Virus record (IMG/VR): IMGVR_UViG_3300035158_000899
DNA: 64,000 bases
Strand: one strand, 5' to 3'
Source of the DNA: a virus
Taxonomy: Duplodnaviria; Heunggongvirae; Uroviricota; Caudoviricetes
A program made the translations under genes and the position numbers. Each line of letters starts with the position of its first letter. The first letter of the stretch is position 1. Positions 3,361 through 62,097 of the stretch are shown here, piece after piece. The notes under the pieces were generated by a model. That model saw only the letters and a program-made list of their open reading frames with translations, was not told the origin of the DNA and did not search any database.

Positions 3361-5023
3361 AAGTTGGGTATTTTTGAAAATAGAATTTATATAATGACAG
3401 GAGCATATTATGATTGAACTTGAAAAAGTATCTTTAGAAGAATTAACAGGGCAAGTTAAACTGATTGATTTAGCTAAAGAAGAAGTAGAATCAACTAAAG
3501 AGGTTAAATTGATTGATTTAGATGAAAAAGATATTAAACCAATGAAAGAAGAAAACACTGATTCAACAATTTCGCTTAATGCTCCGGGTGAACCAATAGA
3601 AGGTAAAGTCACTCCTTTTGAAGATTTAGAGGTAGCAGGACATTATCTTTCTAAGAAAGGCAGAATAGTTCGAATCAAAAGCATTAAAACAGATGAACGT
3701 AGAGTGATTGTGGTTGCCATTGAAACAGGAAATGATATTGAATTACCTGCTGATTATCCTTTAGTACCTTATTCAGGAACAGTTAAAAAGAGTTATTATA
3801 GAAAGAAAGGTGGCGGAAGAAAGAAGAGTGGAGAAACCAAAACCGGCTTTATTGATGAATTGTTACAAACCGATTTAACAATAGAAGAGGTTATTGAGAA
3901 AGCTCTTGAAAAATACCCTGATGACAATAAGAGTAAAATGAAACGGCTTGTTTATACACGGCGCTCACGTTTAAAGAAAGCTAACGGATTGAAAGGAAAA
4001 TCGAAATAGGAGTTATTATGCCAAAAGATCAGATCGATATTTTCCGTAAGAGCTTTGTAAAACATGGTAAGATTGGGTGTACACAGAAAGGCAATAATAT
4101 CAATATCGTTATCCGTTTTCATAATCATGCTGTAAAAGTTTTAAGAGTAGCTGGGAAATTAGATAAGAGTCTTCGCATAAGAATTAAAAAGCAACTTATC
4201 AGCCAAGTCGTTAATGCTAGTGGACCATTTAAGACAAAGAAGTCTGTTACAGAAATGATAGATGCTTTACATGAGTCGCAAAAAGTAGCTCGTAAGGTAA
4301 CATTTAAAAATCAAAAGCAGATCGCCGAGTCAATAAACGATATTGAAATTGTATAAATAAAGGAGTTAAGATGGATTTAGAATTAAGAGAGGTAGATCCT
4401 AAAGAGGTTGGTAAACGAACAAAGAAAGCAAAAGCTGAAGAATCAGAGCTTTCTAAAGAGTCTTGGTATCTTTCACCTAAGGATGTTGAAGAACTGCAGG
4501 AAGGAAGGGAACAGTGAATTCTAAAATTTGGGTTGTTGGAGCACGAGTAAAGTTATTCCCAAGAGATTCATTACCTAAGATAGGTGTAATTGAAGAAACA
4601 ACAGAATATGGTGTCTCTATTAAGATTGTTAAGATAGGAGAATCGTCTGCAATTAAACGACACAATTGGGTAGTTGGAGAGGTAGTGTATTATCCTTGGT
4701 TAAAAGTAGAATTAGCTTTAGAAGAATTACAACCGACATATTCAGAGAATAAAGTTAGTAGTGATTTTGAATGAGTAATCAAAAGAAATGGCAGAAGTTT
4801 AATGATGAGTGCCTCCATTGCGGAGGAGAAGCAGAGGTGCTAACTGATACAGGCAAAGATAATTTGGCATATGACGGAGATGAAGCACGGTGTACTGATT
4901 GTGGTTGTTCAGGATATGTTGTCGTATATGCAGATGAAGAGGAAGCATATATTTCATGGCATGATGATCCAGATTGTAATTGTGAATGGTGTAAAGAATA
5001 CGATAGGAAACTAAAGGAAGCAA

Positions 5024-40953: not shown

Positions 40954-42156
40954 ATGAAGATATTGCATGCTGCCGATCTTCATTTTGGCATAACACTTTA
41001 CGGTGTCTTAAACAAGAATTCGGGCTTAAATACTAGATTAGAAGATTTTATCAATAGCTTTAATCAGGTTATTGATTATGCTGTTGATAATAAAATTGAT
41101 CTATTTGTTTTTGCTGGTGACGTTTATAAAACGCGTTATCCTACCCCGGTGCTTGAAAAAGTATTCGCTGAATGTGTTTATCGGTTATACAAAAATAAAA
41201 TTCGTACTTATATAGTGCTTGGGAATCATGATTTAAGATTTCAGGAAGATTCGGCGCATGCAGTTTCCGTTATTGAAGAATTGAAGATGCCCTATATTAA
41301 GATTGTTTCCAAACCCCATGCTGAATTATTTGTTTCAGAAAAAGGTGAACAAGCTTATATTGTTGCCGTACCTTATCAGACATATCGTAGTTTAGGTCTA
41401 CGTGATAATATAGAAGCTTCTGCGGTTATTTCAGAAAGTATCAAGCAGATAATCAGTGAATTGCCAAAAGGGAAACCAATTATTGTTGTTAGCCATTTTA
41501 CTGTTGAAGGAACTAAATTACAAAATGTTACCGTTGCTTCGCAGCTTGCACAAGCAGTAAAGGCAGGGTGGTCTAATGAACCTGTAATATCTTTGGATGC
41601 TTTTGATGGAGCGGATTATGTCGCGTTAGGCCATATTCACAAACATCAAGCATGGCGAAGAAACGGAACAATTATTGCGTACAGTGGAGGTATTGACAGA
41701 TGTAAATTTGATGAGCAAGGTGACAAGGGGTTTTTAGTGTATGATACCGATTCCAAACATTTGCAATTCGTTAAGGTGCGATGCAGGGATTTTATTGAGG
41801 TTAAGACTGATTTGACGAATTCAACGAATGTTGTTGAAGATTTACGCAAAAATGTTAAAGCGCATATTAAGCCCAATGCCGTGGTAAAAAATAAGATTTT
41901 AGTTAATGAACGTGATAGATTGTTAATTAATTCACATACAGTTTCTGATTTAATGAAAGAAGTAACTGATGCAGGGTTTGAGGTTGAACCTAAAAAAGAA
42001 GAAAAACAAGAGGATGCGAACGAACAAAAGACCGCAGGAGAGGTTGAATTGTTAAGTTCTTTAGAAAAGTGGTTAAGTTCCAAGCAAGAATTTGTATCAT
42101 ATAAAAAAGAACTTTTAAAAAGAGCAATGCAGTTAAAAGAAAACTTAGGAGGATAG
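40954..42156 (+). CDS. sbcD: SbcD/Mre11-family DNA repair nuclease (T4 gp47-like)
   Basis: N-terminal 'MKILHAADLHFG' and the calcineurin-like phosphoesterase motifs (GDVYK, GNHD, HFTVEG, GHIH). Confidence 0.8.
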   Translation: MKILHAADLHFGITLYGVLNKNSGLNTRLEDFINSFNQVIDYAVDNKIDLFVFAGDVYKTRYPTPVLEKVFAECVYRLYKNKIRTYIVLGNHDLRFQEDSAHAVSVIEELKMPYIKIVSKPHAELFVSEKGEQAYIVAVPYQTYRSLGLRDNIEASAVISESIKQIISELPKGKPIIVVSHFTVEGTKLQNVTVASQLAQAVKAGWSNEPVISLDAFDGADYVALGHIHKHQAWRRNGTIIAYSGGIDRCKFDEQGDKGFLVYDTDSKHLQFVKVRCRDFIEVKTDLTNSTNVVEDLRKNVKAHIKPNAVVKNKILVNERDRLLINSHTVSDLMKEVTDAGFEVEPKKEEKQEDANEQKTAGEVELLSSLEKWLSSKQEFVSYKKELLKRAMQLKENLGG

Positions 42157-42157
42157 T

Positions 42158-43240
42158 ATGGGTTTCGATAATTTTGTTTTTGCTCAAGAAGATGTTGCAG
42201 AAACAAAAGATTTCAAAGAAGCTATTGAATGGGCTGAAAATCGTAAAAAAAATATCATACCTAAGCCTGCCCAAAATGTTAAAGTGAGTGAAAAGGGCGA
42301 AATAGTTTTAGAAGGGGAAGCGATAACGACAACAGAATGGGCGTTTGTTAATTTTTGTAGATTATTAGGGATTCCAAAGCCTTTTGCTTATGCAATACCA
42401 GATGATTTACTTTTGACTATTACACATAGGCTTGCTACTATAGATCCAGACAGGTACATGAAATTTCATAGAACAGAAAAAGGAATTATTGGTGTCACAA
42501 GTGATAGATATGATCCTGTTGATGTAAAAGATTGTTTAATTCAGATAGCCGCAACAAATGATGAAATGAAAGAGCTTGAATTACAAGGTATAAATTTAAG
42601 TGACAGAGGCATAGATGTAAAGTATTTGAACAATGAGTTACCAAACCTCGAACCTGAAGTAGGGGATATAACAAAAATAGGATATTCTGTTAAAGATTCT
42701 GATACTGGTTCAGTTGATTTGCAAGCAAGAGCATATCTTTACACATTACAATGTGAAAATGGAGCAGTGTTACCAAATGAATGGGCATGTTTGAGGAGAC
42801 TTAAAAATAAGAAACTCAGTAAAGAAACTTCTGTACTTAATTTTATGACGAGGTTAAAGAATTTTCAAATGAAAACAGATAGGTTAGCTGAGCGATTTAA
42901 TTTAATGGGAAAGACACCAATTACTGATAAATGTTACTATAAATATTGGAGATCGCTTAGAAGTATTACCGGGGAGTCAAGAGCAGATGATATTTTTGAA
43001 ACTGAAAAGGATAAAAGGAAAGAGATAGCGAAAAAGATTAGATGTAGAGACAGGGCAAATAAAGAGTGCATATTTTCTATGGCACCTGAGCAACCAGATG
43101 AAGAAATGGATATGACTTATTACAAGATATATTCAAGGATAACGAATGCCACTAAGCGTTATAGATTAGATAAGTTTGATAAACTCCAAGAGCTTGGTGG
43201 GAGAATGCTCACAGATATGTTGGCGTATTCTAAGAATTAA
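42158..43240 (+). CDS. Hypothetical protein inserted between sbcD and sbcC
   Basis: 360-aa ORF with an SD, starting 1 nt after the sbcD stop. No recognisable motif. Confidence 0.5.
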   Translation: MGFDNFVFAQEDVAETKDFKEAIEWAENRKKNIIPKPAQNVKVSEKGEIVLEGEAITTTEWAFVNFCRLLGIPKPFAYAIPDDLLLTITHRLATIDPDRYMKFHRTEKGIIGVTSDRYDPVDVKDCLIQIAATNDEMKELELQGINLSDRGIDVKYLNNELPNLEPEVGDITKIGYSVKDSDTGSVDLQARAYLYTLQCENGAVLPNEWACLRRLKNKKLSKETSVLNFMTRLKNFQMKTDRLAERFNLMGKTPITDKCYYKYWRSLRSITGESRADDIFETEKDKRKEIAKKIRCRDRANKECIFSMAPEQPDEEMDMTYYKIYSRITNATKRYRLDKFDKLQELGGRMLTDMLAYSKN

Positions 43241-43858
43241 GTATGAAGAAAAAAACTAAAAAATCTATAGAAGGCATATTATCTCTTGCAGTAGGTAAAA
43301 AAGCAAGCCTTGATGATTTATCCAAATTATTGGCAGAAGCAACGTGCAAAAAGTCAAGGTATATAAAGCTTGGGGTAATAAACAAAAGACGCGGATTTCA
43401 GGCATACGAAATGGCATTTGATTACGGGTTATTGGATGATAAAACGACTGAAGTTTTTATCAGAAAGAAAGAAAAGAAGCCAGCATGAAAGTATTTGAAT
43501 ACGACGATAAAATCGTTTTTGAAACAGAAGTAACTGAACCAGAGCTATCCCCTCAAAAAAGAGAAGTAAAGGAATATGAAGGGCTTACAGAACGAGAGAA
43601 AATAGCTGATAAAATTAGAAAGGAAATAGGGGAAACAATTAGATCATCATTGGATAGATTTATAGACCAACCGATGTCGCCGCTACTTATATCAAATATA
43701 AAAGCACAGGTCGCAGGTACTCTTAATCAATACCATGCTTTACAACGTATTTATAATTTTGAAGTAGGCGATGTAGATGAAAATGGAAATTTAGAAGTAA
43801 GGATACAACCCTTTTTTAGTGTTTATCCAATTATAGAAACCAATATCAAAATAAATTA

Positions 43859-46024
43859 ATGTTACCGGTTAGCATAAAAGTAAAAGATTTTTTGTCGCAT
43901 AAAGATAGTACGTTAGACTTTAGATTGTTTGATGCAGCGTGCTTGTTAGGTCGCAACGGTGGTGGAAAAAGTACTATGGCCGTTGAAGCAATGAAGTGGG
44001 TTTTGTATAAGAGAGGTCGCTATCAAATTCAAAATAAAATGGTACGCCGCGATGCAAATGAAGCAGTAGTAGAATACGTTTTTCGTATTGATAGCAATAC
44101 TTATCGTACGACAAGAACACAAAATAGAATTAAAGATAAGCAAGACGTCGTGTTAGAAATAGCCAAGAATGGTGGGTGGGATAACATATCTGGATCAACC
44201 ATACCAGAAACAAATCAGAAGATTGTTGAATTGATTGGTTTGGATTATGAAGCATTCACCAATACTGTCGCTTGTGAACAAGACTTAGCCAAAACGTTTT
44301 TTGATAAAACAAATACCGAACGAAAAGAAGTTTTTCAAAGTATTCTACCTTTGAGGGAATGTGAATTGCTTTGTGACGGCGCCAGGGACAAGAGGGATCA
44401 TTATCGTATTAAAGTAGATACCTTGTTAAGCCAATTAGGGAATCTTGAAGATATCAATGCAAACATTTTGCGATTGCAACAAGAAGTTCAACAAATCAAT
44501 AATATTATTGTTCAAGTACAAGAAAGCATTACACAAACGGAATCGGTACTTAAAGATTTAAGAGAAAACCAGAAGCAATACGAATTGGCAATTAATAAAA
44601 GAGAATCGTTAGTAGCAACAAAAAATAAATTAGAATTCCAAATAGAGCAATGCAATGAACAAATTAATGAATCGAAGGAAGCAATAGAAAAACGAAAGCA
44701 AACGCTTATACTTTTACGAGACCAACATATACCATATAAGGAAAAGTATTTGACTTTAGAAGAGCAAACAAAAATTGACATCGATATTTTAAAACAGCAA
44801 TGTGAGACCTTACTTAAAGCAAAAGACACTGAACAAGCGAATAAACGTAAACATGAAGATATATGTAATACACTTAGTGGGCAAATGAAAAATATTGAAA
44901 TGCAAGAAGCTACTATTAAACAATTAAGAGATAAGTGTATTACTTGTGGTAAAACTTGGACTGAAGATGAAAAAAGAGAAGCGCTCAATAATTTTGTCAA
45001 AGAGAGGCAAGAACTATCACGACAAAGGCAAGCAGCTGTTACTAGTATGGCAAGATTTGATAACGTTATTGGTAACATTGATAAAGAGTTACAAGAAGTA
45101 CAAGCGCAAGTTAATGATTATGAAGAGAGAATAAGGGAATTAGAAAGAACAAAGCAAATGCTTATCAAAATTAAAGGTGAGGCAGACGTTGTTAAGAATG
45201 ATATTACTAATGCTGTAAAAAGGTTAGAAGAAAAACAAAATAATTCAATTGCAATAGCTAATGAATTAACAACAGCTACTGCAGAGTTAGATAAATTAGG
45301 TGAAGTCGTTGAAAGGGATTACGCAAAAGATATCAATGATCTAGAATCCGATTTAAGATTACTTCAACAAAAATTAATAGAAGATAATAGCAACAAGGGA
45401 AGGTTAGAAAACGAATTAGCTTCGAATGAACAAAAGAAAAAAGAAACAATAGGGTTACAAAAAGAAATTGATAAGGCAAAACATGAATTAATGCTTTATG
45501 ATATATTAATCACAGGTTTTGGTAAAAATGGGGTTCAATCAGATATAATCAACGAGGCTACACATGATATTAGGTTGTATGCAAATGATTGGTGCAATCG
45601 ATTGTCACACGGGCGTTTTACAATTGATATTAAAACACAAGAGGAAAATAAAACACAAAAAGGAAAGTTTCGCGAAATTTTTGATATTATTGTTAAAGAC
45701 AATGAAGTAAAGAATGGTAACAACGAAATAGAAAGTTGCGGTTTAAGCGGAGGAGAATTATATCAAGTAGCAATGGCTTTGCGTATGGCTTTAAGTACTA
45801 TACTCGCAAATAGGATCGGAACAAAAATAAAATTCCTTTTGATAGACGAGGCCGCAGTTGCATTAGATGATAATGGGGTAGAAGCATTTGCAGATGTAAT
45901 TAATACTTTGAAAGAGCAATTTAAAATATGTGTTGTTAGCCACAGAAAAGATTTACAAGCGTATTTTGAAAATATAATATGGGTGGAAAAAGAGAATGGA
46001 ATTTCGAAACTTATCCAAAATTAA
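43859..46024 (+). CDS. sbcC: SbcC/Rad50-family ATPase (T4 gp46-like)
   Basis: Walker A 'LLGRNGGGKSTM'; long coiled coil with a central CxxC zinc hook ('CITCGK'); ABC signature 'LSGGELYQVAMALRMAL'; Walker B 'FLLIDEAAVALD'. Confidence 0.85.
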   Translation: MLPVSIKVKDFLSHKDSTLDFRLFDAACLLGRNGGGKSTMAVEAMKWVLYKRGRYQIQNKMVRRDANEAVVEYVFRIDSNTYRTTRTQNRIKDKQDVVLEIAKNGGWDNISGSTIPETNQKIVELIGLDYEAFTNTVACEQDLAKTFFDKTNTERKEVFQSILPLRECELLCDGARDKRDHYRIKVDTLLSQLGNLEDINANILRLQQEVQQINNIIVQVQESITQTESVLKDLRENQKQYELAINKRESLVATKNKLEFQIEQCNEQINESKEAIEKRKQTLILLRDQHIPYKEKYLTLEEQTKIDIDILKQQCETLLKAKDTEQANKRKHEDICNTLSGQMKNIEMQEATIKQLRDKCITCGKTWTEDEKREALNNFVKERQELSRQRQAAVTSMARFDNVIGNIDKELQEVQAQVNDYEERIRELERTKQMLIKIKGEADVVKNDITNAVKRLEEKQNNSIAIANELTTATAELDKLGEVVERDYAKDINDLESDLRLLQQKLIEDNSNKGRLENELASNEQKKKETIGLQKEIDKAKHELMLYDILITGFGKNGVQSDIINEATHDIRLYANDWCNRLSHGRFTIDIKTQEENKTQKGKFREIFDIIVKDNEVKNGNNEIESCGLSGGELYQVAMALRMALSTILANRIGTKIKFLLIDEAAVALDDNGVEAFADVINTLKEQFKICVVSHRKDLQAYFENIIWVEKENGISKLIQN

Positions 46025-47914: not shown

Positions 47915-48466
47915 GAGATATTTATGAGGAGTGCATATTTGAACAAAAAGGTTTATGGAAAAGAATTGATAATAGATTTACATGATTGTGATCCATCTAC
48001 TTTCAATAGGAAAAGCATTAAGGAGTATTTTGATAAGCTTTGTAAAAAAATAAAAATGAAACAGGAGAAATTAGTTTGGTGGGATGATTATAGAGTTCCA
48101 ATTGAAGAAAGACAAACTAAACCACATCTTAAAGGAACATCGGCTGTACAATTTATAAAAACAAGTAATATTACAATTCATACCTTAGATATTCTTAAAA
48201 AGGCCTACATTAATATTTTTTCCTGTAAAAATTTTAATGAGGATGTTGCTCGTTATTTTACCGAAGATTGGTTTAGAGGAAAAGTTGAAAAATGGAATGT
48301 ATTGGAAAGGGTATAGATGACTAGGCTTAGAATTCAAGAACATATTTATTGTGATAGGATTTGGACAGTTTTTGAGCGCAATTGGTCTTCGTATTTAGAT
48401 CATATAGTTGCAATACTTCTTATTTGTATGTTATTATTAACTTCAAATAAGAAGGAGACTGAAATG

Positions 48467-49465
48467 AATGTAGTTTTTATTGTTCCTACGGGTATAGGAG
48501 CTGAAGTAGGAGGTCATAATGGAGATGCTACACCGGCTGCTAAATTGGTAGCATCACTTTGTGATAATTTTATTACACATCCTAATGTTGTTAATGCTTC
48601 GGATATAAATGAAATGCCTGATAATACATTATATGTTGAAGGCAACATGCTTGATAGGTTTTTGTGTGGTAAGATTGGCTTGAAGAAAGTGAAGTTTAAT
48701 AAGGTCCTTGTGGCTACAAATTCACCTGTTAAACCTGAGATAATAAATTCTGTATCGGCTGCTCGAGCATCTATGGGAATGGATATAGAGATAGTTGCCC
48801 TTGATCCTCCTCTTATTTTAACTGGAAAAATAGAGAATAATCGCGCCGTAGGAAAAGTAGTAGGATGGGAAGGACTTATAAAACAGGTTAGAAAATGTAA
48901 ACCATTTGATGCCTTAGCAATATCATCACCCGTTTTTGTAGACAAAGAAACAAAGATGAATTATTGGAAGAGTGGCGGTGTTAATCCTTTTGGTAGAGCA
49001 GAAGCTCTTGTTTCTAAGCTGGTAGGTGATGCATTAAATGTACCTGTTGCACATGCGCCTTGTGAGTATGTTACAAAAGAGAGTGATCCTGAGGTGTTTT
49101 TCTTTAACCAAGTAGTAGATCCTCGTATGGCTGCTGAACTTGTATCAGTGTCGTATTTGCATTGTGTTTTAAAGGGTTTACATAAGGCTCCACGACCGGT
49201 TGAAGAAGGCGGTTTACGAGTTAGCGATGTAAATTACCTTGTAAGTCCAGTTGGTTGTGTTGGAGAGCCACATCATGCTTGTATGCGGAGAAATATCCCA
49301 ATAATTATGGTTAAAGAAAACAAGACTTGTGAAAATAAGGCTACCCCAGAAGGGGTTACTATTGTTGAAAATTATTTAGAAGCCGCTGGTATGATAGCTT
49401 GTAAAAACGCAGGAGTATATTGGAAAACGGTTAGAAGACCTTTAATAAATACCGTGGTAAGTTGA
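48467..49465 (+). CDS. Conserved hypothetical protein (Gly-rich VPTGIGAEVGGHNGDA N-terminus)
   Basis: Start chosen at the Met preceded by the SD 'aaggagactgaaATG'. The ORF is open from 48317. No assignable catalytic motif. Confidence 0.4.
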   Translation, partial: NVVFIVPTGIGAEVGGHNGDATPAAKLVASLCDNFITHPNVVNASDINEMPDNTLYVEGNMLDRFLCGKIGLKKVKFNKVLVATNSPVKPEIINSVSAARASMGMDIEIVALDPPLILTGKIENNRAVGKVVGWEGLIKQVRKCKPFDALAISSPVFVDKETKMNYWKSGGVNPFGRAEALVSKLVGDALNVPVAHAPCEYVTKESDPEVFFFNQVVDPRMAAELVSVSYLHCVLKGLHKAPRPVEEGGLRVSDVNYLVSPVGCVGEPHHACMRRNIPIIMVKENKTCENKATPEGVTIVENYLEAAGMIACKNAGVYWKTVRRPLINTVVS

Positions 49466-49945: not shown

Positions 49946-50671
49946 ATGTTATATTTGTCTGCTTCTAGAATAAATACTTTTCTCCAGTGCCCACAAAAAT
50001 ATAAGTTTATTTATATCGAAAGACGGCCAACAAAAGCGTGGGCACATTTTGCAGCAGGTAATTTAGCTCATAAGGCTTTAGAAATATTTCATGATGAGAT
50101 TAAAAAAGGTTCGATAGAAGGTTTTCAAGTATTAATGAAAAAGGGTTTTATTGAGGCGCGTAAATCGCATGAAGCTAATGCAGGAGAAGAAAACGTAGCA
50201 AAAATAAAACAAATTTTACAGAATTACATCCACTGGTATGCAGGATTAGAAGAAAAACCAAAGGTGCTAGCATTAGAAAAATCATTTAATTTTAGAATAG
50301 GCAGGTATGGTTGTCGTGGTTTTATCGACAGAATAGATGAAATAGATGCGAACAGTATTAAAATCTCAGATTATAAAACAACTTCAGATGAAAAGTACCT
50401 TAAAGATCCTTTGCAATTGGGTATATATCATTTAGCAATGGCCAATAATGATTTTAGGGGTAAGAAAATTATTACCGCATATATATTGTTGAAGCACAAT
50501 TTTAAAGAAATCACGCATGAATTTTCTGAAAAAGAAGTCTTAGAATTTCAAAAAAGGATTATTGAAATTGGGGATGCGATAGAAAAAGAGGTAGAATTCA
50601 AAGCTAAGCCTGGTCCCTTGTGTCAAAAATGGTGCGAGTTCAGGCCGATTTGTTCAGCAATGAAATGGTAA
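49946..50671 (+). CDS. PD-(D/E)xK nuclease of the RecB/Cas4 type with C-terminal Cys cluster
   Basis: 'SASRINTFLQCPQKYKF', 'GFIDRIDE...IKISDYKT' (D...D/ExK), 'Y' motif, and C-terminal 'CQKWCEFRPIC' typical of Cas4-like Fe-S nucleases. Confidence 0.65.
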   Translation: MLYLSASRINTFLQCPQKYKFIYIERRPTKAWAHFAAGNLAHKALEIFHDEIKKGSIEGFQVLMKKGFIEARKSHEANAGEENVAKIKQILQNYIHWYAGLEEKPKVLALEKSFNFRIGRYGCRGFIDRIDEIDANSIKISDYKTTSDEKYLKDPLQLGIYHLAMANNDFRGKKIITAYILLKHNFKEITHEFSEKEVLEFQKRIIEIGDAIEKEVEFKAKPGPLCQKWCEFRPICSAMKW

Positions 50672-51850: not shown

Positions 51851-54266
51851 TAATGAATTATTGTTGAATTATCAAAAGCGTTTAGAAGATTCTAGATATC
51901 GCACTAAGTTTTTTAAGGATTTAGCAGGCGATGATGAAACATCTTATTTTAAAACGCTTTTGGCTACAGAGCAAAATATAGGTGAACAATTAGTAAAGCG
52001 TGCTGATAGGTTGCAACGCTTAATAAAATTAGGTCAAGTACCCGAAGAAGAGCCTGGAGAAAAGCCCGAAGAAGAGTTAGGGGTTGAGGATGAAGAAGTA
52101 GAAGTAGAACAAATTGAAGAAGAGATAGTAGAAGAACCAGAAAAAAAAGAAATAACTGATGAGGAAATTATAGATTTTAATACAGGCGATAATGCTAAGG
52201 ATTGGCAAGACTATAAAAATTATGTTCAGAATGTGTTGAAAGTAGATTTGCGAAGTAAAACAGTAGCCCCTGATAGTCCTTATGCTCCAGCAATTAATTT
52301 AACAGGTTACACTGATAGTGAAGGTAAACGTCATCCTGGCTTGGTAGAACGTTTTGGTTTTGGTAGGGTTATGGAACCAATCATAATTAAGTACTCACCT
52401 TTAATTGGTGGAGTAGCAGGAAGAGCCATGGATGAAAGATATACATTGCAATTTCCAGGAACAAGCCCTGTAGAACGACAAGCCGAAATGTTTCAAATAC
52501 TTGCTACACGCATGCTAGAAAAGATGAAAACTTACGATCCCAAAAAAGGTACCGTGGGTGGCAGAATGTCAAAGAAAGTAGTAGAGCAAGAATTTTGGAA
52601 TGCTACGAGATTAAGAGAAAAAGCTACTAATTTATATAAAGATCTCGTGTGCCCTTTTTGCAGACAACCTAATACAGCTATAGGAGAAGAAACGAAGTTA
52701 CCAGAAGAATATATATTAGACAATCCTGATCATAACGTTTGGCCTCCTTTTAAGGGTAGTAAAGAGCCTGAAGAAAACAAACAGAAGTGGCTTGAGGTGC
52801 TTAAAGAAGAAGGTGAAATTGAAATGTTTTTGTGTCCAGTATGTGGAAATTTCTTTAGGGATGGAGATCAAGTCACAAAAACAACCGCTGTTGCCCCTGT
52901 TTCTTTAGAAGCACCAATACCAGGGCAAGAAGCAGAAGAAGCAGTTTTCGAAGAAGTAATAGAAGATCCGAAGACAAGAACACCAGGAGAAGCAAGTGAA
53001 GAATTGAAAAGACTTGTTTCTCGTACTGCTACTGAAAGGATTGCAAAAGATGTAAAAAGGATGTTGCTTTATAGAGCCGATGGTTGTAGATTCGATGAAA
53101 AAGAAAGCAAGCTCCGTGAGTTAAAAGGCAGATTGGGAAAAGCTGAGAAATACAACAAGGGTAGTGATTTTTATAAGGTTTTAAAAGGTTATAATATAAA
53201 TGAAGAATTAATTAACGAATTTCAATCTGGTTTAGTAGATGGTATAGCAGATGAAATGGCAGCACAACAGAGTGAGGAAGCGCTACAAGAAATAAGAAGT
53301 AGGAATGAAAAGTTTGTCAGTGATATGGTAAGTAGGATATTTGCGGAAGAAACAGATGCACAATTAACTCAAGATAAACTTGATAAAATTAAATTAGCTG
53401 CAAAAGCTTACATGGAAGGGTTTAAAGAGTTTCGTGAATTAATGAGAAGTAAGGGTAGATGTGCTAAAAACATCAATTGGCTTTACCGTAATCCTTGTTT
53501 TGGGTTATATAAAGATGAAGAAGGTAAGAGCAAAATATGCGAAGGCTATGAAGCAGTAGAATTTAGTAGTGCAGAAAGAATGAGAGCAAGAAAATATTTG
53601 CTAACAGCACAAGCTTTTATTATGGTTTCGGCAGCGGTTATAGAAAAGAAGAAAAGAGGTAAGCATTATAGAGATATAAAGAAATTAGCGAATGAAGCTA
53701 TTGCACAGCAAAATAAAGAACTTGAAGCAAGGAATATGGAACGTAGAAAATTAGGTAAAGAACCAATACCACTTATTGAACCTTGGACTGGCGGGTATGA
53801 TGTTGTAAGTGTACAGGGTGTTAAGAATGCTTTAGTGAAAACAATTATACCTCTCTTTAAGATGAAACCTGTGGAACAAATTGAAGGCATAACAGGTATG
53901 ACTTACGATGAAGCATTAACTATGTATTTAGAAGAACTTGAGGATTTAGCAACAGATAGAGGCACTGATATAAAAGAATTGGACTGGCAAGCATTTAAAG
54001 GTAACCCGGGAGCAATTAGAAAACATGTAGAGTTTTTTGGCAAGGAACAATCAAGTGAACGTTTGGGAAGAATGAGAGAGTTAGCCATATTAGCAAGAGA
54101 AGGTGACGAAGAAGCTATTCATACTCTTAGAAGATTGTTTGGGGATAATGAAAAAGTAAAAGAAATAATGAAACAAGAAACAGAAAGGGAGGGTGCGTGT
54201 CAGACATTTCTTACGAAATCCAGTCAGCGCCAACGGAGATCAAGATTGTTGAAGGTGCGAATGTAA
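51843..54266 (+). CDS. Large hypothetical protein (807 aa) with acidic N-terminal tract, a paralogous 'YDPKKGT' sigma-region-2-like segment and zinc ribbon
   Basis: 'ILATRMLEKMKTYDPKKGTVGGRMSKKVVEQEF' followed by 'CPFCRQ'/'CPVCGN' parallels the upstream ORF. EEPGEKPEEELGVEDEEVEVEQIEEEIVEEPE low-complexity region. Confidence 0.3.
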   Translation: MDSNELLLNYQKRLEDSRYRTKFFKDLAGDDETSYFKTLLATEQNIGEQLVKRADRLQRLIKLGQVPEEEPGEKPEEELGVEDEEVEVEQIEEEIVEEPEKKEITDEEIIDFNTGDNAKDWQDYKNYVQNVLKVDLRSKTVAPDSPYAPAINLTGYTDSEGKRHPGLVERFGFGRVMEPIIIKYSPLIGGVAGRAMDERYTLQFPGTSPVERQAEMFQILATRMLEKMKTYDPKKGTVGGRMSKKVVEQEFWNATRLREKATNLYKDLVCPFCRQPNTAIGEETKLPEEYILDNPDHNVWPPFKGSKEPEENKQKWLEVLKEEGEIEMFLCPVCGNFFRDGDQVTKTTAVAPVSLEAPIPGQEAEEAVFEEVIEDPKTRTPGEASEELKRLVSRTATERIAKDVKRMLLYRADGCRFDEKESKLRELKGRLGKAEKYNKGSDFYKVLKGYNINEELINEFQSGLVDGIADEMAAQQSEEALQEIRSRNEKFVSDMVSRIFAEETDAQLTQDKLDKIKLAAKAYMEGFKEFRELMRSKGRCAKNINWLYRNPCFGLYKDEEGKSKICEGYEAVEFSSAERMRARKYLLTAQAFIMVSAAVIEKKKRGKHYRDIKKLANEAIAQQNKELEARNMERRKLGKEPIPLIEPWTGGYDVVSVQGVKNALVKTIIPLFKMKPVEQIEGITGMTYDEALTMYLEELEDLATDRGTDIKELDWQAFKGNPGAIRKHVEFFGKEQSSERLGRMRELAILAREGDEEAIHTLRRLFGDNEKVKEIMKQETEREGACQTFLTKSSQRQRRSRLLKVRM

Positions 54267-55456
54267 TAAAGGAAAAGAAAGAGAAATATTGGGATTCTAT
54301 TAAAAAGGATATTGAATTACCAGGTTTCAGAAAAGGCCATGTCGATAGAAAAACATATGAAAATAAAGTAGGTTATTTTAATTTATACCATCCCATCGTA
54401 GATGATGTAGTCTTTAGTGCTCTCGAATCAATAAAAGATTTTAGAATTGTTTGTGTTTTAGAAAAGAAAGTTGTTCAATTTTTTGATGACATACCTCTCA
54501 TTGTTAAAGTTTTGGTAGATACAAGGCCAAATGTCAAAATAACAGGTAACTATAAAAATATTGAAATCGAAGTACCCAAAATAAAAGTTATCGATGAGGA
54601 AGTAGATCGTCGTATCAATTCTCTTGTTTATTCAAAGACTCCTGCCAAGCCAATAACTGATAGGCCCACCCAAAAAGGCGATTCCATTAAGATTGATTAC
54701 AAAGGGTTTATAGTCGAGGATAATGCTTGGAGACCATTAGCAGGTTACGAAGCTAAAAATGTGAATTTAGTTTTAGGCAACAATCGCTTAAGTATTATAC
54801 CAGATATTGAAGAGTCAATCGTTGGGATGAAGAAAGATGAGATAAAGACCATTGAGGGAACAATACAAGAAAAACGCGGTAAAGTCGAGGTATGTTTAAA
54901 AGAAATATCAATTAGAGAATTGCCGGAAATCAATGACGAATTAGCGAAGCAATATAAATTCACATCATTGGAAGATATGAAGAGTAAGACAAGAGATGAG
55001 TTAGCACAATTTAAAAAAGCACAAATAGAAGTTGACAAACAAGGAAAGATTATCGATGCGTTGATTAAAGATTGTGAATTTGATTCAATACCAAAGTCAA
55101 TGGTAAGAATGCAAATAGAATCTGCGCTGCAATCAGAATGTAAAAATTTCGGCATGGACGTGAAGAAATTTTTAGAGACAATGAAAATTACCAGGGCTGC
55201 TTATGAAGAAGACCGGTTTGAAGATGCACTACGGCTTGTTAAAGCAAGACTTGCATTAGAAGAATTAGCAGAAAGGGAAAAGATTGGTTGTACAGATGAG
55301 GAGATTGAAAAAGAAATGGGCGAAAATGCGAAGAAGGCCGGTGTTAAACTTGAAGAATACAAGAATAGAGTGAATAAAGATGGTATTGGTAATGATTTGA
55401 AGGTCGGTAAAGCGTTACTTTATTTGAAAGAAAGTGTGAGGTATAAGGAGGTTTAA
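54197..55456 (+). CDS. tig: Trigger factor (ribosome-associated chaperone / FKBP-type PPIase) homologue
   Basis: N-terminal ribosome-binding signature 'LPGFRKGHV' (GFRxGxxP), FKBP region 'VDYKGFIVEDNAW...LVLGNNRLSIIPDIEESIVGMKKDEIKTIEG', and 'IRELPEINDELAKQY' align with E. coli Tig over its full length. Confidence 0.75.
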   Translation: MSDISYEIQSAPTEIKIVEGANVIKEKKEKYWDSIKKDIELPGFRKGHVDRKTYENKVGYFNLYHPIVDDVVFSALESIKDFRIVCVLEKKVVQFFDDIPLIVKVLVDTRPNVKITGNYKNIEIEVPKIKVIDEEVDRRINSLVYSKTPAKPITDRPTQKGDSIKIDYKGFIVEDNAWRPLAGYEAKNVNLVLGNNRLSIIPDIEESIVGMKKDEIKTIEGTIQEKRGKVEVCLKEISIRELPEINDELAKQYKFTSLEDMKSKTRDELAQFKKAQIEVDKQGKIIDALIKDCEFDSIPKSMVRMQIESALQSECKNFGMDVKKFLETMKITRAAYEEDRFEDALRLVKARLALEELAEREKIGCTDEEIEKEMGENAKKAGVKLEEYKNRVNKDGIGNDLKVGKALLYLKESVRYKEV

Positions 55457-56830: not shown

Positions 56831-58171
56831 ATGAAAACGACAATGAATAAAAATACCTGTTATATTTTTGGAAGATGGCTGGGTGATGGTAGTAAAACAA
56901 CAAATGCATTAGAAATTGCGAGAAGTAATAATAATTATGAAAAAAAAAATATGGAACAAATAGCGGTTATGCTTAATACTACATATAAACATTGTAATAA
57001 TTATAGTACAAGATTTCATAGACAACAAAAATTAGTCAATCAATTTAAAATTCTATATAATGTTATAAGCGAGATTCACAATTTTTCTTTTTTAAAATTT
57101 TCAATAAATAGATATTCAATTATAGCAGGTTTTCTTGATTCTGACGGCAGCGTAGATATTCACACGCCAAATGAAACTGGAATAAGCAGTAAAAAAATAA
57201 ATATTGTATTTTATAATAATAATTCGCAAATTTTATATTTTATACAAAGATTGCTGCAGATAGACAACATAACATCAACATATAGTAAATCGTATAATTT
57301 AAAAACAAATGTGGGAACAGATAAATGCAACAGGTTATACATACACGGAAGCTTAGATAATTATTTTATAGCATATAAAATATTACCACATATGTTATGC
57401 AATTTTAAGAAAAAGAGATTACAACAATGGACTCGTGATTACGATCGTTTTTATCAAAAAAAGAAAATAAATATTACCGAAATTTTTCATAGTATAGAAG
57501 GTGAGGGACGCAGAATTGGAGAACCTATTACATTTATAAGAGTATACGGCTGCCCGCATAAATGTTCGTTTTGTGATACCAAATATTCTGTGTGTAAGAG
57601 CAGAAGTACGAGATCAAAACATAGCAGGGATTTAAAAATTGTAATCAATGATATTATTAAATTAGGTAACGTTCAAAATATCGAATTTACAGGAGGTTCC
57701 CCAGATTGGTTCCCAGCAAAAATTGGTTATCTATTGATATATTTTAAAGCACGGTATAACAGTAACATAACTATGCAAGTTAGTGGAGGCATTAAAACAG
57801 ATAAGAGCAATAGATTATTTAAATTGTCTACGTTAAACGCATTTGATTATAAGGACCCAAGGGAGAATATTCCATTCGTTATCGAACCTGAATTGATTCG
57901 TTCACAGGATGAAATTAAATTTTTAATAAAAGATAATTTTAGTTACAATTTTGTAAAAAAGAAGATCCAGGAATTGCAAGCTATTGGTATAAATTGTAAA
58001 ATGATAATAACAACTGTAACAAATAATGGCAACGATATTGTTACAGATCATTTAGAAAAATTGAAAAAATTAACAGAAAAAATATTAACAGATGCAAATT
58101 TTCCTAAAGAAAATGTTAAAATTGCCCCCAGGGAACACGTATTATTATGGGGAAATAAAAAAGGTGTATAG
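56831..58171 (+). CDS. queE: 7-carboxy-7-deazaguanine synthase QueE (radical SAM) carrying an in-frame N-terminal double-motif LAGLIDADG homing-endonuclease domain
   Basis: Residues about 215-446: 'EIFHSIEGEGRRIGEPITFIRVYGCPHKCSFCDTKYS' matches the QueE N-terminus with the Cx3Cx2C cluster. Residues 1-214: 'YIFGRWLGDGS' and 'IIAGFLDSDGSV' LAGLIDADG motifs about 90 aa apart in an extremely AT-rich, Asn/Lys-rich segment. Confidence 0.7.
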   Translation: MKTTMNKNTCYIFGRWLGDGSKTTNALEIARSNNNYEKKNMEQIAVMLNTTYKHCNNYSTRFHRQQKLVNQFKILYNVISEIHNFSFLKFSINRYSIIAGFLDSDGSVDIHTPNETGISSKKINIVFYNNNSQILYFIQRLLQIDNITSTYSKSYNLKTNVGTDKCNRLYIHGSLDNYFIAYKILPHMLCNFKKKRLQQWTRDYDRFYQKKKINITEIFHSIEGEGRRIGEPITFIRVYGCPHKCSFCDTKYSVCKSRSTRSKHSRDLKIVINDIIKLGNVQNIEFTGGSPDWFPAKIGYLLIYFKARYNSNITMQVSGGIKTDKSNRLFKLSTLNAFDYKDPRENIPFVIEPELIRSQDEIKFLIKDNFSYNFVKKKIQELQAIGINCKMIITTVTNNGNDIVTDHLEKLKKLTEKILTDANFPKENVKIAPREHVLLWGNKKGV

Positions 58172-58366: not shown

Positions 58367-59050
58367 ATGATGAAATCAGTAGTGTGTCTTAGTGGCGGCA
58401 TGGACAGTGCAACCATGTTGTGGAGGGCAGCGACAGAAAATGGTGAACTGCACGTAATATCTTTTGATTACAATCAACGTCACAAAATAGAATTGGAGTA
58501 TGCTAAAAAATTATGCGGTAGAGTCAGGAAAGTAGTTGAGCATAAAATAATCAATATAGATATGTCTCAAATAGGTGGTAGCCCTTTAACAGATAAGAGT
58601 ATTGATGTACCAAAAGCTTCTGATAAACAACAGATTAAAACAGTTCAACCGTTTAGAAACACTTTATTCACAGTTCTTGCAGCAGCATATGCTGAAGTTA
58701 ACAGTATTGACACAATTTATCTTTCACCAGTACAGGAAGATTATTTGGCATATCGTGACTGTAGGAAAGAATTTTTTACAGCGTTAGAGCATACTTTAAG
58801 TTTGGGCAGTACATATCCAATTGATTTTCATATAAAGACGCCCTATATTTTTAAAACAAAAAAAGAAGTTTTAGAAGATGGGTTACGCATGGGTGTACCT
58901 TATGAACTTACTTATACTTGTTATGAAGGCGACCCGCAAGGGTTTTGTGGTGAATGTGATGCCTGTAAAGAGCGTATAGATGCTTTTAAACAGATTAGCC
59001 AAAAAGATCCTGCTAAGTATTTGAGGGAGATAGAATGGGAAGATCAATGA
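58367..59050 (+). CDS. queC: 7-cyano-7-deazaguanine (preQ0) synthase QueC
   Basis: 'SVVCLSGGMDSATMLW' PP-loop, 'ISFDYNQRHKIELEYAKKL', and C-terminal Zn site 'CGECDACKERIDAF'. Confidence 0.85.
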   Translation: MMKSVVCLSGGMDSATMLWRAATENGELHVISFDYNQRHKIELEYAKKLCGRVRKVVEHKIINIDMSQIGGSPLTDKSIDVPKASDKQQIKTVQPFRNTLFTVLAAAYAEVNSIDTIYLSPVQEDYLAYRDCRKEFFTALEHTLSLGSTYPIDFHIKTPYIFKTKKEVLEDGLRMGVPYELTYTCYEGDPQGFCGECDACKERIDAFKQISQKDPAKYLREIEWEDQ

Positions 59051-59429
59051 TATTTAAGAATACAATCACGAGTCATTCGCCAAATGCTCCTGCATTGACA
59101 CTAACAAGACGAAGCGTAATAGATCTTGGTGAAAGTTATATAAAGATAACTTGCAGCCGCGGCAGAGTTTATATTTTTTCAAAGGAACGAAAAATACCTC
59201 TTCGGGATTTGATTTGCCCGTGCGGTAGGTATATTGTAAAACATGAGCGATTTTGAGGAAAGAATCCTAAAAGCAATTGATGGCAAAAGGGGTAAGGAAA
59301 GAGAAAAAATTATTCATAGCGAATTGAAATTGTTAGTTAAGGCCGGCCTTGATGACCTCAAAAAGCGCATAAAAAACCGCGCTAAAACAGATTTTCTTGT
59401 TAATTTGCTTCGAAAAAATAAATAGAACC

Positions 59430-60750
59430 TCCGCATTTCTATTAATAGTTTGTTTTTTAACAATCTATTAATAAATATATATAATAAAAATAGATAACGC
59501 TATTATTGATTGATAAAGGTATATTGTGCAGAGAGTAGAACGTCATATAGTTTTAAACAATAGGAATATAGAAAAGCTGTGTACCCTTTCTAAAAACCTT
59601 TATAATGTGGGTAATTATAACATCAGGCAGGAGTTTATAAACAATGGTAATTGGTTGAGATATCAACAATTAGATAAATTACTTAAGGAAACTAAAGATT
59701 ATAAAGCGCTTTCTGCACAAGTAGCTCAACAAGTATTAAGGCTTCTGGATAAAAATTGGATATCATTTTTTGAAGCAAATAAGAGATATAATAGGGATTC
59801 AAAAAAATTTAGAAGCAGACCTAAGTTGCCAAGGTATAAAAATAAAAATACAGGGAAAAATATGGTTGTCTTTACTAAACAAGATGCTAGACTAAAAAAT
59901 GGATTTATTTGTTTCCCAAAAAAAGTTAACCTTGAACCTTTAAAAACAAAAGTAAATAATATTTGTCAAGTTAGAATTGTGCCACAAGCAGTTTGTTATG
60001 TTATTGAAGTTGTTTACAATAAGGAGGCCAAAAATGTAAAATTACAACCGAACACTTATTTGAGTATTGATCTAGGTGTCAATAATTTTGCTACATGTGT
60101 TAACAACATAGGTTTAAAACCTTTTGTTGTAAATGGTAAGATATTAAAATCTATTAATCAATATTTTAATAAGAAAAAAGCTAGGCTAATGTCTTATGTA
60201 AAAGATAAGGGTACTTCTAATAAGGTTGACAAATTGATACATAAACGAAATTGCAAAGTACAAGATTATCTCCATAAGACTTCGAGGTTTATAGTTAATT
60301 ATTGTATTGCGTATAAAATAGGTGTTATTATTGTTGGTAAAAATAAAGATTGGAAGCAAGAAATTGATATGGGAAAAAAGAACAATCAAAATTTTGTTTC
60401 AATACCTTTTGACACTTTAGTAAAACAAATACGGTATAAGGCTGAAGAAGCAGGAATTAAGATAGCTGTTAGTGAAGAATCTTATACTTCTAAATGCAGT
60501 TTTTTAGATTTTGAAAAGGTCAAAAAACAAGTTGAATATTTAGGTAAAAGAATTAAGAGAGGGTTATTTAGGTCAGCGGAAGGTATTTTGATAAATGCAG
60601 ATGTTAATTCTGCTTATAATATTTTAAAAAAAGTAGTTCCAAATGCATTTGCAAATGGAATAGAGGGTGTAGGGTTACATCCAATTGTAATACAATTACA
60701 ATAAAAGATAACCTTAATAATAGTATATTTATCGACAAGGACTTAGCGAT
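59430..60750 (+). mobile_element. IS200/IS605-family insertion sequence of the TnpB-only (IS1341-like) type
   Basis: Contains only a TnpB ORF. The flanking AT-rich ends carry palindromic 'tctattaata(g)' motifs on the left (x2) and 'ttaataatag' on the right. Exact boundaries are uncertain. Confidence 0.6.
59526..60704 (+). CDS. tnpB: IS605 OrfB / TnpB RuvC-like RNA-guided nuclease family protein
   Basis: N-terminal 'NLYNVGNYNIRQEF' helix-turn-helix region, RuvC-I 'LSIDLGVNNFATCV', C-terminal 'NADVNSAYNILKKV' (RuvC-III). The usual CxxC...CxxC zinc finger appears degenerate (a single Cys). Confidence 0.85.
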   Translation: MQRVERHIVLNNRNIEKLCTLSKNLYNVGNYNIRQEFINNGNWLRYQQLDKLLKETKDYKALSAQVAQQVLRLLDKNWISFFEANKRYNRDSKKFRSRPKLPRYKNKNTGKNMVVFTKQDARLKNGFICFPKKVNLEPLKTKVNNICQVRIVPQAVCYVIEVVYNKEAKNVKLQPNTYLSIDLGVNNFATCVNNIGLKPFVVNGKILKSINQYFNKKKARLMSYVKDKGTSNKVDKLIHKRNCKVQDYLHKTSRFIVNYCIAYKIGVIIVGKNKDWKQEIDMGKKNNQNFVSIPFDTLVKQIRYKAEEAGIKIAVSEESYTSKCSFLDFEKVKKQVEYLGKRIKRGLFRSAEGILINADVNSAYNILKKVVPNAFANGIEGVGLHPIVIQLQ

Positions 60751-61220
60751 GGTAAAAGTCAGACGAATTGACCAGCAGGTACCCTCCGAAGAAGAAATAA
60801 TCTATAAGATAAATGATATAGGCGTAGAATCATCTTTGTCACAAAGAATCAATGATGTGCCTGGTGAATTTGAATTGGCCGATGAATTTATTAGAATTGC
60901 TAAAGAAATTAAAAGTAATGAAAAGAAAATCGTAGAGGCTTCAAGAAAACAAAAGTATTCTATTAGAAGAATTGGTACAGCAGTGCCCCAAGGTGAATGT
61001 CAATATAATTTTGAAGAATTGCAGGATGCAGAAAGAATATTAAAATTAGCTAAAGGCTTAGACACCATCGAAGACGATATCATAAACAGTATAGTAAATA
61101 TTAAAACTTATGTTAGATAAGAAGGTTAATATTGGGCGAACAATTGGGCGGAGTATTATTACTTCTCGTGTTGGTAATAGGTGTTGTTATTTTAATAATA
61201 AATGTTAAGGAGAAAAAGGG

Positions 61221-61548: not shown

Positions 61549-62097
61549 ATGATGTTCGAAAAAATAAAACCACTATTGACACCTGAAGGTGTTTTACTTT
61601 TAGAGAATGCCGATGAGGCAATCAGATTAGCTATTGTAGCAGAGCAAGACGCGATCAAATTGTATCAATTAATTGCCCAAGCGGTTGAAGATAGGGATAT
61701 TGCAAAAGTTATGTTAGATATTGCTGACGAAGAACAAGTACATGTAGGAGAACTTCAAGAGTTATTAGAACGATTTGATGGTGATGAAAGAGAGTTGATT
61801 GAGAAAGGCAAAGGTGAAGTACGAGAAATGTTAAGTACGGAAATGATTGAACGGCTTATTAAAACAGCGGATGAATTAGAGAAAAAAGGTTATGATAAAT
61901 TAAATGTTTTACTTAAAGAAGCCATAGAAACTAAAGATGTAACGTTTTCTGGTAAAACAAAAGAAGAAATTAACGAACAAATTAAACAGTTAAAAGCAAA
62001 GTATCCTGATTATAAAGTAATTCCTTTAGGCAATTACCGGACAGCGCCTGATGATCCAGAAAAGCGCGAATTAAGAGTTAGATTAGTGAAGGGGTAA
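61549..62097 (+). CDS. Hypothetical protein, possible ferritin-like/rubrerythrin-like four-helix domain
   Basis: Paired helices 'ENADEAIRLAIVAEQDAIKLYQ' and 'IADEEQVHVGELQELL' resemble E...E..H di-iron-site helices. Weak. Confidence 0.25.
   Translation: MMFEKIKPLLTPEGVLLLENADEAIRLAIVAEQDAIKLYQLIAQAVEDRDIAKVMLDIADEEQVHVGELQELLERFDGDERELIEKGKGEVREMLSTEMIERLIKTADELEKKGYDKLNVLLKEAIETKDVTFSGKTKEEINEQIKQLKAKYPDYKVIPLGNYRTAPDDPEKRELRVRLVKG

Follow-up and report, generated by a model that had tools for sequence, protein, structure and literature searches.

In the 64,000-nucleotide stretch of Caudoviricetes DNA analyzed here (IMG/VR record IMGVR_UViG_3300035158_000899; hereafter, the window), a tnpB gene and an overlapping omega RNA (ωRNA) occupy intergenic DNA downstream of the queC gene. 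These two components probably constitute a selfish OMEGA (short for obligate mobile element-guided activity) element of ∼1.28 kb (∼59431–60714) that belongs to the IS607 lineage and is retained by homing. The tnpB gene spans positions 59526–60704 on the plus strand, as do the other features of the element, and encodes a 392-residue TnpB protein, a predicted RNA-guided endonuclease on the basis of family matches, alignments and a structural model. The element is preceded by genes for QueE (56831–58171) and QueC (58367–59050) and by two small open reading frames (ORFs; 59035–59425) that gave no family matches. A 123-residue orphan ORF (60749–61120) is found directly 3′ of the element. The position beside queC and the neighboring genes are as described in an earlier annotation of the same DNA (the original prediction).

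TnpB and its single-cysteine TNB region

The tnpB gene starts with a GTG codon, and an in-frame stop codon lies 9 nt 5′ of it. The GTG codon is identified as the true start because the N-terminal residues of the window protein, MQRVERH, line up with the MQRVERH sequence of homologues whose start codon is ATG. The window TnpB matches the NCBIfam model NF040570 guided_TnpB with 183 bits (cutoff 100) over residues 13–369 and also the Pfam domains OrfB_IS605 (PF01385) and Cas12f1-like_TNB (PF07282) above their gathering scores. The RuvC triad consists of the D182 residue in RuvC-I (IDLGVNNFAT), the E318 residue in RuvC-II (SEESYTS) and the D359 residue in RuvC-III (NADVNSAYNIL). All three residues are unchanged throughout an alignment of 59 sequences, which comprises the window TnpB and 58 of the >7,800 database proteins that match it at E ≤ 1e-20. 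An AlphaFold2 model of the protein has a mean predicted local distance difference test (pLDDT) score of 90 and a predicted template modeling (pTM) score of 0.77, and a TnpB/Cas12f fold is thereby predicted with confidence. The best PDB matches of the model in a Foldseek search are ISDra2 TnpB (8h1j; TM-score 0.68/0.73) and AsCas12f (TM-score 0.67). The window ORF is a genuine TnpB of full length whose RuvC triad is intact, and the GTG start and the RuvC-I and RuvC-III motifs listed in the original prediction are all present. The gene is a single copy, with neither a second copy nor repeated ends in the window. A TnpB protein identical to that of the window (P0001) is found on a Joint Genome Institute (JGI) contig.

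The interval between E318 and D359, where TnpBs usually have a CxxC...CxxC zinc finger, contains exactly one cysteine residue, C324. The single cysteine had been recognized previously and read as a degenerate zinc finger, but degeneration does not apply, since the trait is clade-wide. The zinc-less motif EESYTSKCSFLD...GKRIKRGLF...NADVN is common to 58 of the 58 aligned relatives, among them proteins from Thermoanaerobacter, Geobacillus and Caldicellulosiruptor, and the shared stretch of the alignment reads EESYTSKCSFLDxE...GKRIKRGLFRS..G.LINADVN. The (K)RGLF/Y portion of the motif is kept in the fetched loci of cyanobacteria, Asgard and other archaea, and Ktedonobacter. A resolvase-linked TnpB from a Helicobacter phage has the same layout (TSKCDHLANE...GKRVKRGLFKS...NADING). 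In the AlphaFold2 model, the zinc-less stretch (residues 321–360) has block pLDDT values of 90–94 and forms a β-hairpin at residues 341–349. The absence of a C4 zinc finger does not disqualify the protein as a TnpB because zinc finger loss in some large TnpB branches has been published (Altae-Tran et al., PMC10691335). As judged from the alignments, the single-cysteine TNB region is what a very large clade normally has and not a decay of the window copy.

The virus-enriched RIIIr-4 clade of zinc-less TnpBs has its RuvC-III catalytic aspartate replaced by histidine (PMC10691335). Membership of the window TnpB in this clade is ruled out by its canonical NADVN motif with D359; on account of the NADVN motif, the protein is placed in the 'Derived' (NADxN) clade of the same study. 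A profile search of solved structures found none from the clade of the window TnpB. The nearest natural TnpB with a solved structure is ISDra2 TnpB (E = 1.5e-10), and the sole structure that scores better belongs to a nuclease designed by artificial intelligence (3.6e-12).

ωRNA, guide and element ends

The 3′ region of tnpB overlaps a predicted ωRNA scaffold. The 85 nt at 60630–60714 fold into exactly three stem-loops with a minimum free energy (MFE) of −21.6 kcal/mol (z = −3.8); no sequence of this stability occurred among 200 shuffles. Stem-loop 1 (60636–60661; outer stem 60637–60641:60656–60660) is located within the VPNAFANG codons and is observed in both the RNAalifold consensus and the MFE fold. 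Among 51 non-redundant relatives analyzed with RNAalifold, 49 to 51 sequences are paired at each position of this stem-loop. Its innermost pair is AU in 28 sequences, GC in 8, UA in 5, CG in 4 and UG in 4, through changes at third codon positions. The second stem-loop is a nexus-like pseudoknot hairpin, GGGTGTAGGGTTACATCC (60665–60682), with a 5-bp stem (60665–60669:60678–60682) and the loop sequence GGGTTA (60672–60677). This 18-nt block, located in the last tnpB codons (EGVGLHP), shows nucleotide-level conservation and compensatory changes in three of the five stem pairs; the motif occurs once in the window. Stem-loop 3 (TTGTAAT-ACA-ATTACAA, 60685–60701) closes at the tnpB stop codon, and relatives carry one or two variable hairpins at its position. 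A long-range helix in the MFE fold between the RGLF codons (60560–60569) and the right end was dropped, as these codons vary synonymously in relatives that keep ATAACCT.

The scaffold terminates shortly after the stop codon, where the window reads TAA-aag-ATAACCT (60702–60714). In an alignment of 3′ flanks, (A)TAACCT is followed at once by unrelated sequence in >30 Firmicute, archaeal and viral copies; the ends of cyanobacterial and Chloroflexi copies read AACTAT or AGCTAT. The last six bases, TAACCT (60709–60714), are assigned as the right end and as the pseudoknot partner of 60672–60677 on the basis of flank divergence and covariation. Positions 8–13 of the hairpin block are complementary to the terminal hexamer, and both segments covary. 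The loop:hexamer pair is GGGTTA:TAACCT in the window, where all six base pairs are perfect, and relatives carry GTAGTT:AACTAT, GGGCTA:TAGCCT, GTGTTA:TAACAT, GCAGTC:AACTGT, GGGTTG:CAACTT, GTGCTA:TGGCAT and GGACTG:TGGTCT. Pairing of the pseudoknot helix reaches 96.7% across 46 distinct sequences, and four of its six pairs vary on both sides. The covariation score of 0.547 compares with 0.20 for shuffles and is reached by none of 500 shuffles; in registers slid by 1–3 columns, pairing falls to 23–49%. Published IS605 and IS607 ωRNAs are described as three consecutive stem-loops with a pseudoknot between the nexus and the 3′ end (bioRxiv 10.1101/2023.11.20.567912), and the layout predicted for the window agrees with this description. 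An Rfam scan of the window returned nothing at the gathering threshold.

The right end of the element is placed at 60714 because the ωRNA scaffold ends there. The original prediction had correctly assigned the ωRNA to the 3′ end, and folding of this region recovers a scaffold with a covarying pseudoknot. Its proposed range (60650–60750) is replaced by a scaffold at ∼60636–60714 and a guide at ∼60715–60734, and its right boundary of 60750 moves to 60714. The position of the predicted guide, TAATAATAGTATATTTATCG (60715–60734), follows from the scaffold end, with an assumed length of 16–20 nt. The guide matches only itself in the window when up to three mismatches are allowed, and the same DNA would be the target presented by an element-free allele. 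The ribosome-binding site (60737) and the ATG codon (60749) of the next gene are located 3′ of the guide.

Right ends in relatives show further arrangements. In locus L018, the called ATG of the downstream gene falls inside the right end of the element (4203–4230), and in Helicobacter phage Pt11057A_1 (L109, 2728–2738), the right-end hexamer stops 1 nt before the ATG of an exonuclease gene. Since these right ends overlap or abut the start of the next gene, the predicted guides would target the 5′ ends of phage genes. In locus L106, ATAACCTAT occurs twice, 30 nt apart, 3′ of tnpB (∼4218–4320), and the second copy may be a solo remnant of a right end or ωRNA end, or the original target motif. 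Within the tnpB gene of the window, a 17-nt stretch (59917–59933) resembles the right-end terminus CAAAAAAAGTTAACCTT (60699–60715) at 15 of 17 positions, which is near chance level by a rough estimate.

The left end was assigned tentatively. The hexamer GAACCT (59425–59430), located directly after the stop codon of the upstream 60-residue ORF, is a candidate transposon-adjacent motif (TAM) and left junction. A single base separates GAACCT from TAACCT, the hexamer at the right end, and the pentamer AACCT is found at both candidate junctions (59426–59430 and 60710–60714), which is compatible with the shared core dinucleotide expected of an IS607 element. Locus L014, whose TnpB is 68% identical, has GAACCT ∼85 nt 5′ of the start codon and TAACCT at its right end, and in a Geobacillus copy, ATAGAACA adjoins the left end. 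In the Clostridium botulinum IStron (CboIStron), the TAM (TGGG) and the right end (TCGG) likewise differ by one base, which prevents self-cleavage (bioRxiv 10.1101/2023.11.20.567912). A left end near 59431 would give an element of 1,284 bp (59431–60714). Under this tentative assignment, the ancestral empty site would read AAATAGAACCT followed directly by TAATAATAGTAT, the junction in an empty allele would be ATAGAACCT joined to TAATAATAG, and the target would consist of GAACCT and TAATAATAGTATATTT.

The putative left end and tnpB 5′ leader (59431–59525) contain an inverted repeat, a promoter-like site and an AAGG ribosome-binding site. The imperfect 20-nt inverted repeat (59435–59454/59459–59478) is 85% complementary and includes two copies of TCTATTAATA (tctattaata(g); 59438–59448 and 59464–59473). 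It overlaps the best sigma-70-like promoter match, TTAACA-17-TATAAT (59457–59485), which agrees with the consensus at 11 of 12 positions. The tctattaatag palindromes had been reported on both flanks and interpreted as IS605 hairpins. This interpretation is not supported: both copies lie in the left flank, at the promoter-like site; the right flank has only a loose likeness to the palindrome (TTAATAATAG), the hairpins at the right end covary as RNA, and no two-ended layout of the TnpA type is discernible.

Transposon family and phage context

Relatives of the window element were collected from reference genomes (80 loci), IMG/VR (12 loci) and metagenome assemblies (the others), and ∼109 loci were screened. 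A serine-recombinase ORF or its pseudogene remnant is found directly 5′ of tnpB on the same strand in 25 loci by tblastn. This recombinase matches the Pfam Resolvase domain and the NCBIfam model NF033518 transpos_IS607 with 173–177 bits (cutoff 110). Locus L108, whose TnpB is 63% identical to that of the window, also carries a serine recombinase, and pseudogene remnants of tnpA_S persist in L105 and L107. A tblastn search with one Y1 (IS200/IS605) TnpA query sequence gave no match in the ∼109 loci or the window. The TnpB lineage is assigned to IS607 because all of the transposase-linked relatives carry a serine recombinase and no Y1 TnpA was found.

In the window itself, no TnpA of either type was detected within 64 kb by tblastn (with the same Y1 query), in agreement with the original prediction, and no TnpA remnant is present in the 95-nt left region. 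The window copy is thus a non-autonomous, TnpB-only derivative and not a complete IS607 element, since it lacks a serine recombinase, and it is labeled 'IS1341-like' because it lacks a transposase. ISfinder files TnpB-only elements (the IS1341 group) under IS200/IS605, and their published size is about 1.25–1.4 kb (PMC9956272). The window element fits the IS1341 description with one tnpB ORF, short ends, an estimated length of 1,284 bp and no transposase remnant. The IS1341 group is a descriptive category and not a lineage, and the name IS200/IS605 fits the element solely in this loose ISfinder sense. In the earlier assignment to a TnpB-only IS200/IS605 element, the TnpB-only part stands, and the family is revised in view of the IS607-type serine recombinase that accompanies the relatives. 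IS607 elements are described as having neither inverted repeats nor palindromic ends and as generating no target duplication (bioRxiv 10.1101/2023.11.20.567912), so subterminal hairpins of the IS605 type are not expected.

The tnpB gene is compositionally foreign to the phage. Its GC content is 28.3% and its GC content at third codon positions is 19.6%, compared with 34.5 ± 2.1% and 25.3 ± 2.0%, respectively, for 21 phage ORFs, so that its GC content is ∼3 standard deviations lower. Every listed ORF of at least 200 residues in the window is on the plus strand, and several ORFs have phage-type matches (SbcCD-like, PhageMetallopep, and QueC and QueE PHROGs). No tRNAs were found in the window.

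The closest relatives (61–68% identity) are located on metagenomic contigs, in which tnpB is co-oriented and tightly packed with its neighbors. Six of the nine closest-relative contigs have phage or mobile-element contexts, with genes for an intein-bearing T4-type portal protein and a prohead protease, DnaB, Pol III α, primases and D5_N. In a neighbor-joining tree of 80 TnpBs, the window protein groups only with copies from metagenomic contigs, and no genome-derived locus is present in that clade. More distant homologues are found in many GenBank phages, including Bacteroides phage C3_41T2LP (54%), Bacillus phage G (gp662), and Staphylococcus, Nodularia and Lak phages. In one assembly (GCA_041643095.1, JBGGHE010000008.1; L019/L020), a 61%-identical tnpB gene lies 20 nt after a T4-type portal gene that is itself interrupted by intein and HNH insertions. 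The left junction predicted for this copy would lie in the last codons of the portal gene, and the locus is dense in selfish elements.

An element-free relative of the phage was not found in the INPHARED, IMG/VR, 5.8-billion-protein or metagenome pattern searches. The INPHARED blastn search for related phages matched the tnpB gene only, and scans of IMG/VR with the downstream 123-residue protein and QueC gave nothing useful. Among 5.8 billion proteins, the 123-residue protein matched only itself. Two exact-pattern metagenome scans (for the hypothetical empty site and for the right flank) returned no matches, and the source contig itself was also unmatched.

The QueE ORF (56831–58171) contains a radical-SAM domain (∼212–446) that is preceded by an N-terminal extension of ∼210 residues with two LAGLIDADG motifs. 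The extension matches the Pfam domains LAGLIDADG_3 and LAGLIDADG_1, and an intein-splicing domain was not detected in the ORF. The QueE ORF is the other strong AT-rich outlier of the window (GC content, 27.8%). This composition and the LAGLIDADG extension suggest that another selfish nuclease lies 1.3 kb upstream of tnpB.

Other genes of the window include a complete trigger-factor homologue (Trigger_N, FKBP_C and Trigger_C; 54197–55456), which is embedded in the phage-like single-strand gene array; a ribosome-associated chaperone is unusual cargo for a phage. Genes at 40954–46024, 49946–50671, 12056–13771, 48317–49465 and 61549–62097 encode an SbcD/SbcC-like nuclease pair, a Cas4-like PD-(D/E)XK nuclease, a CobT-like protein, DUF3326 and a rubrerythrin-like protein.

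Homing, alternative explanations and related systems

RNA-guided homing and retention in phage genomes is the most likely function of the element by analogy with known systems. The steps proposed here are modeled on characterized IS605 and IS607 TnpBs and on the homing logic of PMC13565253. Transcription of tnpB would start at the promoter-like site of the left end. TnpB would then bind or process the 3′ portion of the tnpB transcript to yield an ωRNA, and the 16–20 nt immediately to the right of the element (60715 onward) would be the guide. The resulting ribonucleoprotein would cleave phage genomes that have the TAM and target and lack the element. With GAACCT as the candidate TAM, the element's own right junction, TAACCT, one base off, would be spared. 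Repair by recombination with an element-bearing genome, which may be a replicating sibling or a relative that co-infects the cell, would copy the element into the cleaved genome. The outcome would be retention and homing without transposition, and a serine transposase provided in trans by an IS607 element of the host would be required for new insertions.

Several observations weigh against this interpretation or the evidence behind it. The left end and the TAM, and the insertion event as well, are deduced from the sequence, since neither an element-free allele nor a further copy turned up. In full elements with TnpA_S, the right-end pentamer is not consistently repeated at left ends or upstream of tnpA_S, and the (A)TATGG start of the left end in Firmicute and archaeal relatives is not present in the window copy. 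The right-end heptamers of the covariation test were drawn from a motif list compiled by eye, and the 46 sequences are dominated by two pairing types. In the window scaffold, the tail from the pseudoknot hairpin to the scaffold end is 26 nt, the shortest among the fetched relatives (46–89 nt in the others). The clade membership in the tree partly reflects selection, as the metagenomic sequences had entered it as the best matches to the window. As to the heptamers, the pseudoknot rule was checked in three elements outside the list, and each gave six of six pairs: the Helicobacter IS607-type element (L109, GTGTTT:AAACAC), L011 (GCAGTG:TACTGT) and L001/L003 (GTGGTA:TGCCAT), the right end of the last being set independently by flank divergence. 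The tail length is not unprecedented, as the Helicobacter IS607-type element has a tail of 22 nt.

It is conceivable, though on present evidence unlikely, that the window TnpB and its 61–68% identical relatives form a lineage found mostly in phages and other mobile elements that has shed the serine transposase and most of the end sequence and persists purely as an RNA-guided homing endonuclease, which co-infecting phages pass on to one another. In the window, this endonuclease would form a nuclease island with the LAGLIDADG-bearing queE gene and drag the queC and queE genes for 7-deazaguanine DNA modification along into related phages by co-conversion.

Among the alternatives to a homing element, the best surviving is a stranded relic that arrived once, is now immobile and has an inactive or irrelevant TnpB and ωRNA that have yet to erode. 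This explanation, which is considered improbable, draws on the missing transposase within 64 kb, the single copy of tnpB, a left end that lacks the motifs of cellular relatives, the short scaffold tail and the GTG start codon. It is opposed by the uninterrupted ORF, the intact three stem-loops and the six-of-six pseudoknot. The invariant columns of the 59-sequence alignment, including the triad, are by definition kept in the window copy. An equally short tail is found in the resolvase-linked Helicobacter element, and several phage-borne relatives are just as compact and intact.

A co-opted phage function has a still slimmer chance. Beyond maintaining itself, the element would benefit the phage: it would exclude competitors that carry the empty allele, co-convert the queC/queE 7-deazaguanine module into relatives or act as a regulator. 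The nearest relatives form a lineage that is seen only in phage and mobile-element contigs, always co-oriented and tightly packed, and the AT-rich LAGLIDADG–queE fusion 1.3 kb upstream makes the region resemble a homing-endonuclease island; free-standing phage homing endonucleases act in exactly this manner (PMC13565253). However, the guide is the mere adjacent flank, as in any selfish OMEGA element, with no other match in the window, and neither associated genes nor an ωRNA array are present. A regulator similar to TldR, a nuclease-dead domesticated TnpB, is unlikely because the RuvC domain is intact; membership in TldR was ruled out on the basis of the intact triad and of a guide that corresponds to the adjacent flank rather than a promoter target. 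Competitor exclusion is mechanistically homing and hence would not be a distinct molecular function.

An IS200/IS605-family element of the Y1 'peel-and-paste' type, with tctattaatag palindromes as subterminal DNA hairpins and a lost TnpA, is very improbable and largely refuted: the ISfinder placement of the IS1341 group, the Pfam domain name OrfB_IS605, the imperfect inverted repeat in the left flank and the 7-bp hairpin before the right end speak for it, but 25 of 25 transposase-linked relatives carry the IS607 serine recombinase with no Y1 TnpA match, the window TnpB and the resolvase-linked TnpB of the Helicobacter phage are 40% identical along their whole length, the palindrome is confined to one flank at a promoter-like site, and ωRNA structure accounts for the hairpins at the right end, whose covariation is of the RNA type (G·U-tolerant).

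The selfish homing element preferred here is one more TnpB element, ordinary and apparently intact, and its value is mainly corrective. The single-cysteine TNB region is identified as the native state of an IS607-associated TnpB clade. For this clade, covariation supports a rule that defines the ωRNA, the right-end boundary and the guide, in which positions 8–13 of the 18-nt hairpin pair with the terminal hexamer. If a phage-restricted, transposase-free lineage does spread by RNA-guided homing, it would provide a natural case of 'transposon non-restorative homing', a concept that has mostly been treated theoretically to date (PMC13565253). Such a lineage would also be a source of compact, zinc-independent TnpBs (392 residues with a scaffold of ∼80 nt), none of which has been structurally solved.

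The window element is close in organization to CboTnpB of the IS607-family Clostridium botulinum IStron (Žedaveinytė et al., bioRxiv 10.1101/2023.11.20.567912). In both systems, the lineage partner is the serine recombinase TnpA_S, the ωRNA is located in and just past the tnpB 3′ end with consecutive stem-loops and a pseudoknot that joins a hairpin to the 3′ end, and the flank to the right of the right end serves, or in the window is predicted to serve, as the guide. The TAM and right-end motif are nearly identical to each other in each system (TGGG/TCGG in CboIStron and the candidate GAACCT/TAACCT in the window). CboTnpB cleaves the empty site, after which the element is reinstated by homologous recombination, and the same role is proposed by analogy for the window TnpB. 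Unlike CboIStron, the window element has neither a group I intron nor TnpA_S, has another terminal motif, is phage-borne and is much more compact. The window TnpB matches the NCBIfam IS607_TnpB model with just 18 bits (cutoff 350) and therefore represents a different subfamily.

The TnpB (orfB) of the IS607-type element found in Helicobacter pylori phages and prophages (e.g. PQ159894.1) is 40% identical to the window TnpB over the full length and shares the single-cysteine, zinc-less motif TSKC...GKRVKRGLF...NADIN. The Helicobacter element also shares stem-loop 1 and the pseudoknot rule, but its pseudoknot sequence (GTGTTT:AAACAC) differs. Its right end lies 4 nt past the stop codon and adjoins the next phage gene, and, unlike the window element, it keeps an upstream resolvase gene. 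ISDra2 TnpB (IS200/IS605; PDB 8h1j/8exa) resembles the window TnpB in the overall fold, the D-E-D triad of RuvC and the derivation of the ωRNA from the gene 3′ end. Features that set ISDra2 apart from the window system are a CCCC zinc finger, a RuvC-III motif of the DRDxN form (NADVN in the window), a Y1 TnpA partner and single-stranded DNA hairpin ends, and the sequence relatedness of the two proteins is detectable by profile only (E = 1.5e-10).

The free-standing homing endonucleases of phages (T4 SegF/SegB and Mob) provide a functional parallel for a small AT-rich nuclease gene that is wedged between conserved phage genes. These enzymes cut the allele without the gene and spread by recombinational repair with co-conversion of neighbors, as would be expected for the window element by analogy. 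SegF/SegB and Mob recognize their targets through protein, whereas recognition by the window TnpB would depend on a guide RNA and the TAM. Self and target are distinguished by sequence polymorphism for SegF/SegB and Mob, and the proposed distinction for the window element is the presence or absence of the element itself.

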